Source: a virus
Virus record (IMG/VR): IMGVR_UViG_3300032893_000763
Coordinates: 1-64,000 of that record
Length of the DNA: 64,000 bases
Direction: 5' to 3' (one strand)
This document shows positions 36,932-46,805 of the stretch, in pieces. The position numbers were made by a program, and so were the translations under genes. Under the pieces are notes generated by a model. It saw nothing but the letters and a program-made list of their open reading frames with translations, was not told where the DNA came from and did not search any database. The first letter of the stretch is position 1. Each line of letters opens with the position of its first letter.

Positions 36932-37009
36932 TGCGGCGGCGCGGAGCGGGCCTCGAACCCGCAACCTCCGATGCCTCGGGCTCTACCTCTTGAGCTACCC
37001 GCCCGCCGC
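36932..37009 (-). ncRNA. tRNA-like RNA lacking an anticodon loop
   Basis: TA-GCTC-AAGAGGTA-GAGC D arm, GCGGG-TTCGAGG-CCCGC T arm, CCGA-GGCA-TCGG mini-arm, 12-bp bulged acceptor stem. Confidence 0.7.
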
Positions 37010-37059
37010 GTGCCGGTTGCACCCCGGCGGCGTCAGCCGGGAAGGAACCGGAAACCCTA

Positions 37060-37385
37060 TGGAGCCGGTGGGAATCGAACCCACGTCCGAACAGGTGGTG
37101 CGCTGGAAGTTGATAGCAGCTTCTTGGGGGCATGTGCCCTCCACCAGGGCAGCCGTCTCTCCGGCTCCGTAGTCCGCTCGTCTCTCCGAGCCGTCCTTCG
37201 CGTGGTGCCCTACGCGAACGAGGGAGCGAAGGCCGGGGACGCAGGCACGAGGCCCTTGATCCACGACTTCGCCGCGACGATCAGCTTGGTGATCGCACTT
37301 GACGTTGCCCTCCGGGCCGGTGCGGTAGGCCGCAACCCGCTGCCTTCTCACGTCCGTTCCTATCCGTCGAAGCCAGGTCGGCCCC
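37060..37385 (-). ncRNA. ssrA: tmRNA
   Basis: 5' GGGGCCGACCTGGCTTCGAC, 3' GGACGTGGGTTCGATTCCCACCGGCTCCA, G3:U70 pair, tag ORF 37210-37296, own TACACT promoter. CCA not encoded. Confidence 0.92.
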
Positions 37386-37409: not shown

Positions 37410-38185
37410 GGAGCCCCCGGCTCGATCTCAAGCGCATCTCCCTCTGTGCTGTGGTAGGTGCGGGCGTCGTGTGCGGCAGACTTGAAGCGAGTGGACTAGA
37501 GAGTCCGATGCTCCGTCGTCTCTACCACTCTACGGTTTTAGTCGAGGGCTCGCCGTACGCCCCCTTCCTCCCGCGTTACTCCGCCACACCGTCTAGGCGA
37601 TGCGCCATTCCGCGCCTACCATCGAGGTCTAAAGCGATGCACCAAGCGGGAGCGCAGCACCACGGCTCGCGTGCGCCGCGACTAGTGACACGTCGAAGGG
37701 AACTCTGCAAGCCCTGAGTGGCTCGCTTCCAATCGGTGTGCGACCTCGTACGTCCGTGCTGGCCGGGCTCCCGCTTGATTCCTACGAGACTTCCTCAAGT
37801 GTCCGCCACGCCGTCCTCTCTCGCCTACCCTACCCGTTCGTGCGCACTCCCGGTTACTCTCGGCTTGAGACTCTGACGCTTTACTGTTTCACTCGCCCGT
37901 ACGCCTCATCCTCGTACACCCTTCGTTCAGGGGTCGCCCTCGGTCTTCGCTGCTAGCCGGGGTCGTGGTCGTTAGCCGTCAGGGGTGTAGTCAACGGTGT
38001 GCTGGACGGTACCTCGCAGTGGCGGGCACTGGAGGAAGTCTCGTGAGTCTTCATCCGCGCGACCGTAGTCTGCTCCTTCGCGGTGGAGACAAGTGATAGA
38101 GGGGAGTTCCGCCTTCCGGCCAGTTTCCCGTATCCGCTTGCAAGCACATCATCGGGCCGAAGCCCCAAGCCTGCAATCCCTCGTA
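37410..38185 (-). ncRNA. Candidate giant structured ncRNA (~780 nt)
   Basis: TTGACG-N18-TAGGAT promoter (38192-38221), no credible ORF, long-range stems (37784-37809 with 38019-38044; ~37641-37653 with ~37767-37779). 3' end approximate. Confidence 0.7.
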
Positions 38186-38217
38186 CGAGTGATCCTACTG
38201 GATTCGGGAAGGTTCCG

Positions 38218-38781
38218 TCAAGAGAGCGGGCAGACGTTGCCGACCTGCACGGGCTTGTAGTCCGTGATCTCCACGCAGACGTTGATGTACGTCTTGCCGG
38301 GGATGAGATGGCCGTCGTGCTCGGTCGGGTCGTTCGAGGGCCGCATGATGTTCTGATGCGTGTGGCCGTGGATGTTCGTGTGCCACCACTCGACGCCGAT
38401 GCCGGTCGAGCCGCGAGACGGGCCGGGGAACTCGACGGAGATCGGCCGGTGCGTGAAGGCCACGCCCTTGCGGATGAACTCGGGGATGATGGTGAAGCCC
38501 GCCTTGGCGTAGAGGTCGCTCTCGGGCTTGTCATGGTTGCCGAGGATCAGGTACTTGCGGCCGGGCAGGCGCGAGACGACGGCAGCCCACCGCTCGGGGT
38601 TGCCCTGCTTGCCCATGAACACGTCTCCGAGATGGAGGATGTCGTCCTCCTCGCCCACGTACTTGATCCAGTTCGAGAGCATGATGACCTCGTGGCTCTC
38701 GGGCCGCGCCTGGAACTTGATGATGTTCTTGTGGCCGAAGTGCGTGTCCGAGATGAGCCACGTGCGGTTGGCGATCTTCAC
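38218..38781 (-). CDS. Calcineurin-like metallophosphoesterase
   Basis: SDTHFGH, LGDV, GNHD, THRP, HGHTH. Confidence 0.9.
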   Translation of the reverse strand: MKIANRTWLISDTHFGHKNIIKFQARPESHEVIMLSNWIKYVGEEDDILHLGDVFMGKQGNPERWAAVVSRLPGRKYLILGNHDKPESDLYAKAGFTIIPEFIRKGVAFTHRPISVEFPGPSRGSTGIGVEWWHTNIHGHTHQNIMRPSNDPTEHDGHLIPGKTYINVCVEITDYKPVQVGNVCPLS

Positions 38782-38790
38782 ACCCCTAGC

Positions 38791-39231
38791 CTAGCGCATA
38801 GGCTGCGCGAAGACCACGAGGCGGTACGTCGCCGTGAACGGCGGGGTGCAGGTCGTGAGCACGAGACGTTCGTGCCCGACATCTTGAAGGGGCGCTGCGT
38901 CCGTCGGCGCGATGACTTCGCTGCCTGTGACGGAGTACGCCGTGGTACGTCCGGCGACTCGCAGGAAGATGCGAGCGCCTCGACGCAGGCGGTCGAGGAA
39001 GCGGAAGGGGCCATGTCCGCCGAATCCAGGCACAGGCGTCACCCGGTGTCCAGCGATGGCGATGGTGCAAGCGCATCCGGGCCGTCCCGATCCGGGGTAG
39101 AAGCCGGGGCCGTGCGCGAGCACGGACTCCCCCACACCCTCCCGCACAACGGTGCGGATGCCGAGCGCCGGAATCGTGAGCACCGGAGCCGGTGCAACGA
39201 TGGCGGGAGGGGTGGGAGGAGTCGCGTGCAT
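38791..39231 (-). CDS. Sortase (class E-like) without N-terminal membrane anchor
   Basis: LTIPALG...EG...L..GPG.Y...AGHRVT...PFR.LD.L..G...LVLTTCTP...RLVV supplies the His/Cys/Arg triad. Confidence 0.85.
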   Translation of the reverse strand: MHATPPTPPAIVAPAPVLTIPALGIRTVVREGVGESVLAHGPGFYPGSGRPGCACTIAIAGHRVTPVPGFGGHGPFRFLDRLRRGARIFLRVAGRTTAYSVTGSEVIAPTDAAPLQDVGHERLVLTTCTPPFTATYRLVVFAQPMR

Positions 39232-39235
39232 CGAG

Positions 39236-40414
39236 CTACTTGGTGTAGGCCAGCTTCTTCGGCTTCTTCGCCTTCGGCTTGGCCTTGGCCTTCGCAGCCG
39301 TCACCGGCTTCTGCGCGACCGGGTGCCACGCCTGTGCCGTCTCGGGCTTGACGCAGACGAGCGCCCCCGCGAGGTTGAGCGTGAACACGTAGCCGACCGG
39401 CGGCGCAGACTGCACGCCGTCGATGTTGACGCAGATGTCCGGCGTCGTGCCGTCAGCACCGGCAGGCCCGGCAGGCCCCTGCGGCCCGGCAGGCCCGGCA
39501 GGCCCGGCAGGCCCGGCAGGCCCCTGCGGGCCAGTTGCGCCCGTAGCGCCCGTCGCGCCGTTGGAGCCGTTGGCACCCGGAGCGCCGTCCTGGCCGTTCT
39601 GGCCGGGGCAGACGACCGTCGGATCACCGATGTTCTCGTCACCGTTGACGACCTGGATCACGGCACAGCCGCTCTCATCGGTCGAGACGACGACGCTGTT
39701 CCCGTTCTGGCCGGGAGCGCCCTGCGGGCCGGTGTCACCGGGCACGCCCTGCGCACCGTCCTGTCCGTTCGCGCCGTTGGAGCCGTTGCAAACGAACTGT
39801 TGATCGACCCGCTCACCCGAGGCGTCGTACACCTGGATCGCAACTCCGCCCGTCGTGGCGCAGACATCGCCACCCTCACCGGGGCCGAACGTCACGGTGG
39901 TCACCGTGTCGCCGTTCGTCCCGTTGGTGCCGTTCGTCCCGTTGGTGCCGTTGGTGCCCGGTGCGCCCTGCGGCCCGGCAGGCCCCTGCGGCCCGGCAGG
40001 CCCCTGCGGCCCCTGCGGCCCCTGCGGCCCCTGCGGCCCCTGTGCCCCGCACGAGGTCATCGTGGTCGTGCCGTACGAGGCCGACCCCGAGTTACCGTCG
40101 CGTGTGGAACCGGAAGTCCACGAAGCCGAGGCCGCGAGCTTGTCCCCGTTCACGAGCGTCAGCGAGATGGTGTCCGTCGCGCTTGAACCCGTGAAGGAGA
40201 ACTGCTTGGTCACGGCGGAGCCGCCGTTGACCGTGTAGGACTCGGTGATCGTGTTCTTGCCGCCGTTGCCCGACCCATGCGAATCGAACGCAGCGTACGA
40301 GTAGGTCAGGGTCGTACAGTCGTACGTGATCGTGCCGTTGTGCGCCGAAGCCACAGCGGCGAACACGCCAAACGCAGCGATGACCGCTGCGATGGTACCC
40401 ATCAACTTCTTCAT
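39236..40414 (-). CDS. Secreted collagen-like protein, probable sortase substrate
   Basis: Signal peptide ending ASA-H, three Gly-X-Y tracts separated by Cys-pair modules, Lys-rich linker, C-terminal LAYTK. Confidence 0.85.
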
Positions 40415-40504
40415 ATCCGTACCTCCTTCATCGGTTAGCGTGAGATTTTCACGCTCCGCACTTACAAGTTTAGAAGACTCGGGTAGGTCTTGTCCAGAGG
40501 GTTC

Positions 40505-42383
40505 CTAGACGAGAGCCTCCCGGTACTTCTCTGAGTACAGCGTGGGGTGCTCGATGGCATCGAGCGCCTTCTCGCGCGGGACATCGAACTCGTCCAGCAC
40601 GACCTTGCCGTCACCTGCGATGACCGCGAGGCGAACGGTAGCAGTCGAGGACGCCACGATGTCGATGTGGAAACCGACACCGCGCGGGCTCACGAAGATT
40701 CTGTCTTCGGCGTTCAACTCCTTCCTCATGCACTCCTCCTCCTCTCGGCTGCGAGGCGAGCCTCGTAGCGGGCCACCATGTCACGGTAGTCGTCCTCGCA
40801 GATGGTGCCGATGTGGCGAGTGAGGAGATCCTTGGCCTGCTCCAGCGAGCAGGTGAGAAGCGCGATCCGGTTGCGGGTGCGATCCGTCATGACTGCCACC
40901 GCCGCGATGATCGTGCTCGGGCGCATCGGGTGGATGCGGCCATCGTGAAGCTCGACATCCCACAGCGTGCCGACGGCGCGGGGGCCGATGACGGTGCAGG
41001 TGCCGTAGGAGTTCTGGAACGTCATGCCGGGATACACGCGGCTCGCGTTCGGGTCTTGGACATAATGTGAAGTGGTCATGGCCTCATCATCGTCTACGCC
41101 GAGGAGAACGTCCACCCCTCGTTCGAGTGAACTGGCGCAGACGCAGGGGCTCCGCTACACTCCTGCGCATGAGACTCGTCCGCTACTTCCAGAACCGCCG
41201 GGCCGTGAAGCGGCAGCTTCGGCTCCTCGCCCGGACGCTCGAAGTCGCCCTCGCGCGGCCCTCCGATCCGAGGGGCTCGTGATGGCCGTCTTCTCCGTGA
41301 AGGATCTCAAGGTCGTCAGCATCTTCCAGGTCGGCCAGAAGAAGGGCGGCAAGAAGAAGTGAGCATCTCCGTCTCCGAGCGCAGCGAGCCGAAGCCGCCG
41401 TCGAGCGTGCGTGACGGTGCCGAGGCGCGGAAGAAGCGGCAGCGCGAGGCAGCCGACGTGCTGCGCGAGCGCAAGGACAACCCGGTCGAGCGCCGCGTGC
41501 GTGTGGCGCAGTCGCGCATCACCTTCTCCAAGGTGAGCCCGGCGACACTGCGCGAGTGCACCGAGTGCGGGCGTGAGAACTGGCGGTGGCTCACCGAGTG
41601 CCCCGGCTGCGGCACGCCCGTAGATGTCTGACGACACGCAGGTGTGGGACGGCGTTCCCCGTCTCTACCTCTCGCGGGATCAACTGTTCTGGCTCTACTC
41701 GTTCGTCCCGCAGTGGCGCGGTCGTGCAGTCGGCCCGCTCGTCCCGTTCGCACACGGAGAGCGTGTGCACTTCTCCGTCGAGGCGATCTTCCGGCCGACC
41801 AAGGAGGAGGCCGAGGAGGCGATGTGGTACCACGTCGAGAACGCTTGCAAGCACGAAGGCATGGCGTACGATCAGGAGCAGTGGACGCTCTATGATCTCC
41901 GTCTTGTCGGAGGGTGCTAGACTTGTACTGTTCCCCCGGCGGAGCGGAGCGCGACAACGGCAGATGCCATACGGCCCGCCCGCCGGGGGACTCTACGGAG
42001 GAGGAGGAGACTTGATCGAGGAGCCGAGCATCGTTCTGCACGACACGGCCAAGCTGCTCATGCGTGGCCGCTGCGTCGAGGCCGACGCCCGCGACTCGCA
42101 GGGCCGTCCCGTCTTCCCGACCGAGAAGTCCGCAGTCGCATGGAGCGTGACCGGGGCGCTGCTCAAGGCGGCACGCGAGGCGACCGGCCGCTGCTTCCTC
42201 GACGCCCTGCGCGGGCTCGCGCTCGCGGTCGGAGCCGAGGTCGCATCTCCGCGTGACTGGCCGGAGTCCGAGACGCCCGTGATCGCGCGGCGTCTGTGCG
42301 AGCAGGTGTGGGAGTTCGAGGACGGCGCGAGTAACGCAGCGGTCTTCGAGATGATCGAGCGTGCGCTCGAACACGTGAACTGA
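40505..42383. other. Small hypothetical genes (40505-40729 -, 40726-41079 -, Zn-ribbon 41359-41631 +, 41624-41920 +, ~42012-42383 +)
   Basis: Codon bias and coupling. Confidence 0.55.
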
Positions 42384-45938: not shown

Positions 45939-46805
45939 ATGGAGCAGACGAAGCTCGACTCCCTCCTCATCTCCGAGGTCAGTGGCGTGGACGATCCCGC
46001 GAACCAACTGCCCGGATGGATGGTCACCAAGGCGGCAGGCGGAAACGCTGCCGACCTTCTGCTCGTTCTTGCGAACGAGATGGAGGCGCTCACGAAGGCG
46101 AGCACCACCAAGGAGCCGTACGGCAACGTGGAGTACGCCGACCCCGGCTATCAGAAGGACGGCAAGAAGCGGTACCCGCTCGACACCGAGGAGCACATCC
46201 GTGCGGCTTGGTCGTACATCAACGCCGAGGACAACGCCGCTCTCTACACCGCTGAGCAGCTTGCCGAGGTCAAGGGCAAGATCAAGGCCGCGATGAAGAA
46301 GATCGGTGCGGAGGTCGAGGAGGACACGTCGAAGGCTGCGTCGGACTCCGAATCCATAGTGGCGCGGATCAAGGGGATTCTCTCCTTGGGCTCGCCCATC
46401 GAGAAGGGAATCGAGATGGAGAAGGACGAACTTCTCGCGGTTCTCGCGGATCGTGACGAGGCGCTTGCCAAGTCGATCAGCGAGGCCGTCGCAGAGGCCG
46501 TCTCCAAGTCGGTTGCCCCCGCCGAGGGCGAGGGCACCGGAGAGGAGACTCCTGCGGCAGAGGCGGCTCCGGCCGTCGATGTCGAGGGCGTGACCAAGGC
46601 TGCGGTCGAGGCCGCAGTTGCCGAGGTCGAGTCCAAGTACAACGAGATCCTGGAGAAGGCTCTCGACCGCATCGAGACGCTGGAGCAGCGCCTCGGCGTG
46701 GCGGCACGCAAGTCGCTCGACGGACAGGAGTCCGGCGAGGGCGAGCCCGTCACCAAGTCCACCCCCGACCTCGGTGATGCCATCGCTGCCGCGTTCACGC
46801 GGTAG
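45939..46805 (+). CDS. Capsid scaffolding protein with N-terminal protease-like strand and DUF6582-like domain
   Basis: LLISEVSGVDDPAN; YADPGYQKDGKKRYPLDTEEHIRAAWSYIN; acidic helical C-terminus; directly upstream of the capsid gene. Confidence 0.75.
   Translation: MEQTKLDSLLISEVSGVDDPANQLPGWMVTKAAGGNAADLLLVLANEMEALTKASTTKEPYGNVEYADPGYQKDGKKRYPLDTEEHIRAAWSYINAEDNAALYTAEQLAEVKGKIKAAMKKIGAEVEEDTSKAASDSESIVARIKGILSLGSPIEKGIEMEKDELLAVLADRDEALAKSISEAVAEAVSKSVAPAEGEGTGEETPAAEAAPAVDVEGVTKAAVEAAVAEVESKYNEILEKALDRIETLEQRLGVAARKSLDGQESGEGEPVTKSTPDLGDAIAAAFTR

Follow-up and report, generated by a model that had tools for sequence, protein, structure and literature searches.

A leaderless minimal sortase and a collagen-like partner with a tail-less terminal motif in a temperate phage genome

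In textbook sortase biology, a membrane-held enzyme acts on a membrane-held substrate. Here we describe a two-gene cassette from the soil phage genome IMGVR_UViG_3300032893_000763 in which a gene for a collagen-like protein, the presumed substrate, is followed on the minus strand by a sortase gene. The source record is a 93.8-kb IMG/VR virus (67% GC, rated complete by CheckV), and the window analysed, by which we mean the whole stretch of DNA under study, is its first 64 kb (64,000 nucleotides). A tyrosine integrase gene lies at 80.5 kb of the record, hence the phage is taken to be temperate.

Our literature search for tail-less sorting signals turned up one case, streptococcal AbpA, which ends in LPKTS-AVK without a hydrophobic domain and is anchored and laddered by the adjacent SrtB (Liang et al. 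2016, PMC4974636). The two systems are alike in that a dedicated sortase lies beside one secreted adhesin and that basic residues precede the motif, with only a very short tail (KAGKA-LPKTS-AVK). However, SrtB is class-B-like and membrane-bound, and the system belongs to Firmicutes (oral streptococci) and is neither phage-borne nor collagen-like. Furthermore, the AbpA tail extends three residues past Ser, whereas that of the window phage substrate is one residue past Thr. An October 2026 preprint (bioRxiv 10.64898/2026.10.24.761521), which states that sortases had been undocumented in viruses until then, describes gut huge phages (>200 kb, Bacillota hosts) that encode class B sortases with the substrate gene directly upstream. 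These share with our locus a phage-encoded sortase with an intact triad and a presumed substrate immediately upstream, but their substrates have full signals (PXTG, hydrophobic segment and charged tail), whereas the window phage is a 94 kb, temperate, high-GC phage with a class-E-like leaderless enzyme and a tail-less signal.

Class E sortases and their LAXTG substrates (Streptomyces coelicolor SrtE1/SrtE2 and chaplins, PDB 5CUW; S. avermitilis, 5GO5; T. fusca SrtE, 9IOK) resemble the pair in having Ala at P3, in their Actinobacterial origin, in an aligned class-E Tyr and in giving the best NCBIfam and PDB sequence matches to the enzyme. They differ in that the window sortase has neither a transmembrane helix nor a cytoplasmic extension and, although its best NCBIfam match is class_E (NF033747), it scores 77.8 bits against a cut-off of 160 and so falls outside class E by score. 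Class E substrates have Gly where the window phage substrate has Lys and nothing after it. LPXTG-anchored collagen-like adhesins (Scl1/SclA, Scl2/SclB; Lcl) have the same succession of signal peptide, globular head, triple-helix stalk and C-terminal sortase motif. Their heads are unrelated to that of the window protein, which lacks a membrane anchor, and the NCBIfam matches are weak and confined to the repeats (53 bits against 325–500; ~53 bits against the equivalog cut-offs of 400 for Scl1, NF038330, and 325 for Scl2, NF038329). The minimal sortases of Thermoleophilia-type metagenome-assembled genomes (MAGs) come closer, with 40–53% identity, a homologous substrate head and the same terminal motif, but those enzymes have a leader, either a signal peptide or a lipobox, and the stalks of their partners are Pro/Thr-rich, not collagen. 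There is no Pfam or NCBIfam class model for this minimal-sortase family, and in the literature we found no description of it, of minimal class-E-like sortases whose partners end one residue past Thr, or of a leaderless sortase clade.

We consider it probable (roughly 60%) that the window phage pair is a dedicated sortase–substrate module of an undescribed tail-less type, which derives from high-GC Gram-positives (Thermoleophilia/Solirubrobacterales-like) and is carried by a temperate phage. This reading builds on gene structure, homology, motif conservation, an intact triad and purifying selection, each established here.

The first gene (39236–40414, minus strand) is an open reading frame (ORF) for a secreted collagen-like protein of 392 aa, with a GC content at third codon positions (GC3) of 0.86. 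It has a homologue at the same genome position in L002, a related 92-kb phage which is syntenic with 65–85% nucleotide identity in blocks. Residues 1–24 (40343–40414) have the features of a Sec-type signal peptide, i.e. an n-region MKK, a hydrophobic core (top 19-residue Kyte-Doolittle mean of 2.3, at residue 4) and a likely cleavage site between ASA and HNG. Equivalent leaders are present in L002 and the cellular homologues, and the mature N-terminal His is nearly invariant across the family. All leader and helix calls are based on hydropathy, motif, alignment and structure model. The leader is followed by a Cys-bracketed beta-sandwich head (residues 25–122, 98 residues; 40049–40342), placed in an uncatalogued family by BLASTP, profile search and AlphaFold2 (AF2). 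The stalk (39443–40048) contains three Gly-X-Y runs (residues 123–170, 211–240 and 271–324), counted by regular expression as 16, 10 and 18 triplets, with small two-Cys domains between them. Cysteines occur at 185/209 and 250/269 in the stalk and at 328/354 right after it. The Pfam Collagen model (PF01391) matched in three stretches at 1.2e-22 (79.8 bits, cut-off 27.2).

Ten of the final 30 residues are Lys, and a Lys-rich tail (39254–39310) lies ahead of the terminal motif LAYTK (39239–39253), which is directly followed by the stop codon TAG (39236–39238). The L-[PA]-x-T core of the canonical sorting signal is present as LAYT (residues 388–391). In place of the canonical Gly at P1' is Lys392 (K, R, L or P across the family), and no hydrophobic segment follows, as the stop codon lies one residue past Thr. 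No sorting-signal anchor model (TIGR01167, PF00746) or other NCBIfam or Pfam model of that kind matched the substrate.

The second gene (38791–39231, minus strand) encodes a leaderless, minimal, class-E-like sortase of 146 aa, which matches Pfam Sortase (PF04203, peptidase C60) at 2.2e-23 (82.8 bits, cut-off 26.6) over profile positions 1–124 of 125. The catalytic residues His62 (39046–39048), Cys128 within a TTC motif (38848–38850) and Arg137 (38821–38823) are invariant in all 18 sequences of the alignment (A2). Together with this alignment, an AF2 model (mean predicted local distance difference test, pLDDT, 85.5, with low confidence at residues 1–10) and a Foldseek search place the triad on an eight-stranded sortase barrel; matches to solved sortases reached E ~1e-12 and a template modelling (TM) score of ~0.8, with class C and class E equally. 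The cellular minimal relatives scored 43–80 bits against the class E model. The best PDB sequence match was the S. avermitilis sortase 5GO5, and Y45 (GPGFY) aligns with its GHY motif, the position of the class-E beta3/beta4-loop Tyr which has been proposed to be responsible for the choice of Ala at P3 (PMC5148588). Gaps in the query directly ahead of the catalytic Cys, relative to 5GO5, can be read as a shorter beta6/beta7 loop.

In alignments A1 and A2, a Pro-rich N-terminal segment, MHATPPTPPAIVAPAP (39184–39231), occupies the position of the signal peptide of cellular homologues. Neither a membrane anchor nor a signal peptide was found in the sortase, which has no helix-compatible hydrophobic segment and no upstream start codon in frame; its sole hydrophobic stretch (residues 11–29, Kyte-Doolittle 1.69) includes four prolines and forms beta-strand 1 in the model. 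The sequence details from which the original prediction was made (promoter, signal peptide, collagen runs, LAYTK-stop, 4-nt junction and sortase triad) were thus all borne out, and so were Lys in the Gly position and the absence of both transmembrane segments from the window phage pair.

Six leaderless sortases (from the window phage, L002 and four short contigs) start with M-x-x-x-P-P-T-P-P-A-l-x-A-P-A-P-V. In a maximum-likelihood tree they form one clade (100/100) nested within leader-bearing minimal sortases, indicating a single loss of the leader. Between the window phage and L002, the catalytic domain has a dN/dS of 0.17 (dS 0.80, dN 0.135), hence the leaderless sortase is kept by purifying selection, and all six sequences have retained the triad. 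A Cys-x-Cys pair (C53, C55; 39067–39075, minus strand) was also invariant in the six, in place of the Q-G-T of exported cellular relatives, and might bind metal or have a redox function in connection with the changed compartment.

In L002 the cassette lies in the same place, with a small conserved gene on one side and the transfer-messenger RNA (tmRNA) gene on the other, and the collagen-like protein ends in KPKKLAFTK, its terminal motif being LAFTK. Many relatives of the sortase (150–160 aa, 40–53% identical) occur in uncultured Actinomycetota, mostly Solirubrobacterales/Thermoleophilia MAGs, and no copy above 53% identity was found in GTDB representative genomes. Among 300 sampled genomes from the class of one cellular locus, the seed genome alone matched at E<=1e-20, therefore either the family is sparse or this threshold is too strict. 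No GenBank phage matched the region in a megablast search, and tblastn of the sortase gave only three distant records (29–33%), from Enterococcus or faecal phages.

In every minimal-sortase locus with a readable upstream region (14 of 14), the preceding gene encodes a secreted protein that has a related motif no more than five residues from the C-terminus. The cellular partners end in APFTK (L008, L009), LPFTK (L013), LPFTR (L041), APFTL (L028), AFTL (L071), LAYTR (L003/L006) and SPFTR (L090), and those on three other IMG/VR contigs in APYTL (L092), VPYTP (L094) and PHTLGLGL (PHTL plus four residues, L093). The pattern [AP][FYW]T[KRL], which was composed only after the first matches were known, terminates 10 of the 6,586 ORFs in the loci fetched by then (stop-to-stop, >=60 aa), and all ten are directly upstream of a sortase. 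Although the pattern is post hoc, the lack of matches elsewhere in these loci remains informative. Lys-rich or basic segments ahead of the motif also recur (L002, L013, L028, L090, L092, L093, L094 and P0151/P0154/P0167). The family therefore shows the two marks of a tail-less sortase/substrate pair, an adjacent dedicated sortase and a conserved near-C-terminal motif.

The prediction that both proteins lack membrane anchors holds for the window phage but not across the family. Sortases of the cellular relatives have a short signal peptide or lipobox (e.g. LVGC in P0062 and L028), and the three viral contigs that carry the same pair (L092:60–1224, L093:2758–4384 and L094:3238–4267; contigs of 35, 11.5 and 71 kb, 49–65% GC) keep a signal peptide on the sortase and Lys-rich stretches ahead of the motif in the partner. 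The absent leader is thus special to one sortase clade, and the tail-less substrate common to the whole family of pairs. The pairs on the three contigs suggest that the module has been captured repeatedly by mobile elements. These viral loci were found with alignment queries; a viral scan with a single sortase protein as query had given no matches.

A second and much commoner locus type was observed in Solirubrobacterales MAGs (L010–L087, e.g. L010:2849–4675 and L014:2100–4697), where a longer sortase (N-terminal ...RIAYLARRE...) is preceded by a protein of ~600–900 aa ending in YAGPGSLGGT[KE]SALRR-stop. Here too, the protein next to the sortase has no hydrophobic tail at its C-terminus.

The head domain links the shortened signal to canonical ones. 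The phage head is homologous to the partner heads in L028 (BLASTP 5e-8), L041 (1e-5) and L013. No Pfam or NCBIfam model matched it and a word-based search with the substrate head domain gave no matches, but an exhaustive search with a profile from four heads recovered 277 cluster representatives (E<=1e-3) among 1.8 billion proteins. Ten of the best 150 of these 277 have a canonical signal (LP[FY]TG or LAxTG, a hydrophobic helix and an Arg-rich tail), while nine end in [AP][FYWH]T-X. Because one family bears both textbook and shortened signals, the terminal LAYT-K is read as a derived sorting signal and not as a chance likeness, and the tail-less form is a derived variant. The AF2 model of the head (pLDDT 88.5) is a seven-strand beta-sandwich, and fold searches returned only a generic, weak likeness to FN3/CBM56.

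Two other endings were frequent among the best 150 of the 277 representatives: in 14 proteins the last residue is the Gly of P-x-F-T-G, and 22 end in Cys-x(3-6)-G-x-G-COOH. Examples of these endings are P0165, P0173, P0207, P0221, P0228, P0250, P0262 and P0265; and P0142, P0144, P0146, P0159, P0171 and P0190. The two endings are candidates for additional terminal tags.

The presence of canonical tails in distant members of the substrate family, and the loss from both phage proteins of parts that textbook sortase systems need, could also mean that capture by the phage was followed by decay, in which the hydrophobic parts were dropped from a formerly canonical LAXTG-anchor substrate and from a membrane sortase, both nonfunctional today. 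However, phages share the tail-less terminus with many cellular lineages that do export their sortases, GC3 remains intact like the reading frames, and both the dN/dS value and the six intact triads given above speak against decay, which we regard as very unlikely. Homologues with a normal tail, which would have marked the phage copy as decayed, were not seen among close relatives, since L002 has LAFTK and each minimal-sortase locus a related motif. The closest homologues keep the tail-less terminus, and the proposal of a non-canonical rather than a decayed sortase system is upheld.

The junction of the two genes was proposed to allow a fusion, in which a +1 frameshift or an assembly indel would yield a single secreted collagen-LAYT-linker-sortase polypeptide able to process itself. 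The spacer is indeed just 4 nt (CTCG, 39232–39235), with no separate Shine-Dalgarno sequence, the sortase frame is +1 to the collagen frame and open for 23 codons upstream of its start, across the stop, and a fusion would give the enzyme a way out of the cell that it otherwise lacks. However, in this window, with its 67% GC, 66% of randomly chosen positions have at least 23 open codons upstream, hence the open frame is no more than expected by chance. In L002 the sortase GTG overlaps the TGA stop (GTGA), which would require a -1 and not a +1 shift. Read in the sortase frame, the stretches upstream give unrelated peptides in the two phages, whereas the collagen tail in the zero frame is conserved, and ACC-AAG-TAG/TGA offers no slippery codon and no re-pairing for a +1 slip. 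None of the hallmarks of programmed ribosomal frameshifting (slippery site, shared frame relation, conserved trans-frame linker) was therefore found. Gene calls in five clade members and L002 place an ATG/GTG start at the homologous position. Cellular pairs are clearly separate genes, with spacers of 0, 2 or >20 nt and sortases that have their own signal peptides, and no fused homologue was found among proteins of 257–2000 aa, where only ordinary class E sortases occurred (<=52% identity). We consider the fusion very improbable. Instead, the close spacing without its own ribosome-binding site fits translational coupling of substrate and sortase by termination-reinitiation.

The cassette sits among head genes, and the structural genes on either side of it are encoded on the other strand. 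It has its own 90-nt intergenic region on the minus strand, carrying a sigma-70-like promoter, TGGACA-N18-TAAACT (40467–40496; 9/12 consensus matches), and a strong GGAGG ribosome-binding site 7 nt ahead of the ATG of the collagen-like gene (Shine-Dalgarno, 40422–40426, read from the sequence), which is kept as AAGGAGG in L002. A consensus scan over 3.2 kb gave two promoter sites against 0.2 expected from shuffles. The location among head genes, together with matches to many PHROG tail-fibre families (PHROG 819, 6320, 5073 and others), raises the alternative that the collagen-like protein is a fibre of the particle, stapled to it by the sortase. Yet these matches lie within residues ~105–325 only, i.e. 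in the collagen stalk with its Gly-X-Y repeats and spacer domains, and do not make the protein a member of a phage tail fibre family. A cleavable-type Sec leader is present in both phages, the cassette has its own promoter on the opposite strand, and the cellular homologues are ordinary secreted proteins, making a virion fibre highly improbable.

If the pair is a tail-less sortase–substrate module, the substrate would be exported by Sec and form a fibril consisting of the head, a collagen triple-helix stalk with disulfide-type knots, the Lys-rich tail and LAYT-K. By extension from the established sortase mechanism, the enzyme would recognise LAYT and Cys128 would attack the Thr–Lys bond, with a single residue as leaving group. 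The thioacyl intermediate on Cys128 would then be resolved by an amine, to which the fibre would be passed. This acceptor might be the peptidoglycan cross-bridge or lipid II, or the lysines of neighbouring tails, in which case ladders would form as with streptococcal AbpA/SrtB. The basic tail may keep the C-terminus close to the anionic envelope and so stand in for the absent membrane helix and charged tail, or else it may supply nucleophiles.

Sortases hydrolyse their substrates when no nucleophile is at hand, as established for SrtA, and with both enzyme and substrate soluble, access to lipid II is not obvious. The enzyme might then be a hydrolase or C-terminal trimming peptidase which removes the last residue or frees the fibre and anchors nothing. 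We think this unlikely, as trimming one residue has no evident use, AbpA/SrtB provides a precedent for anchoring and laddering from a tail-less signal, and the Lys-rich tails provide nucleophiles.

The missing export signal could alternatively mean that the sortase works inside the cell, on the C-terminus of the unexported pre-protein or on a cytoplasmic phage protein. In line with this, the enzyme lacks a leader, its translation is coupled to the substrate stop codon, and its clade gained the invariant CxC pair, which exported homologues lack. In addition, a second phage ORF, encoding a scaffold-like protein just ahead of the major capsid gene (45939–46805, plus strand), ends with the motif, as AAFTR, where we estimate that ~0.02 such endings would be expected among real genes. 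However, the scaffold homologue in L002 ends in AALTRKS and thus lacks the motif, whose occurrence in the window phage is considered coincidental. Furthermore, the eight cysteines of the substrate are paired, as is typical for exported proteins, and no sortase reaction is known to take place in the cytoplasm. An intracellular role is distinctly unlikely.

Canonical endolysins are leaderless and are released on membrane breach. By analogy, in the reading of the missing leader that we favour, though at well below even odds, the leaderless sortase would accumulate in the cytoplasm and meet the secreted substrate only after the late-infection breach of the membrane, and fibre stapling would thereby be timed to lysis. 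As a tentative extension of the tail-less module, a holin might free the sortase so that fibres are stapled, via the one-residue leaving group, to wall debris, neighbouring cells or virions. A broader and equally tentative idea is that in the whole family the motif may be presented by a poly-Lys tail instead of a membrane helix, the family then being a soluble sortase system that works outside the cell.

Several points weigh against the module reading or its extension. The substrate has an export signal while the enzyme has none, a topological mismatch, and the holin/lysis route by which this could be overcome is drawn from analogy. If the cassette were expressed from a prophage as a moron, an enzyme confined to the cytoplasm could do nothing with a secreted substrate, which conflicts with a role in lysogenic conversion. 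In the window phage, no lysis gene was found close to the cassette. The cleavage site and acceptor, like the timing and biological role of the pair, for which masking, adhesion and decoration after lysis have been put forward, are what we infer from the chemistry and comparisons above. S. aureus SrtA is poor on motifs with a free carboxylate near the scissile bond, so a single-residue leaving group would need an adapted active site. Four of the six clade members (P0002, P0004, P0005, P0006) come from short contigs, and phage contigs are shown for two of the six. The promoter is a consensus match which is not clearly conserved in L002, falling below the detection threshold there, with a weaker 8/12 site (TACACA-N17-TACTAT) visible by eye at a comparable distance.

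Other features were noted around the cassette. A tmRNA gene at 36938–37385 (minus strand) was called by ARAGORN and scored 46.7 bits in Rfam, just below the gathering score of 47; its tag has 28 residues and ends in PSFA. An adjoining tRNA-like element (36938–37004) scored 28.4 bits against 29. The ~800 nt between the tmRNA and a metallophosphoesterase gene (37418–38217) had no Rfam match at E<=0.01. Both this stretch and the phosphoesterase gene itself (38218–38781, phrog_547) are missing from L002, where the tmRNA lies 336 nt after the sortase. In L002, HNH-like and Amidase_2-like (PGRP-type) genes lie ~0.7–1.8 kb downstream of the sortase (L002:9108–10213, minus strand). Neither is present in the window phage, in which searches for Amidase_2 and for the L002-type amidase found nothing.

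The family of pairs described here dispenses with the substrate anchor, and one clade, found in phages, also dispenses with the enzyme's export signal and does so under selection. The resulting topological mismatch poses the question of a lysis-timed release of the enzyme. Should the enzyme prove active on LAYT-K, a four-residue motif plus one leaving residue would be the smallest unit recognised by a class-E-type sortase, and for protein ligation this would offer a naturally soluble sortase of 146 aa with a very short tag. The finding is relevant to the remodelling of host surfaces by phages, with viral sortases documented in one preprint so far, and to the envelope biology of poorly known soil actinobacteria.

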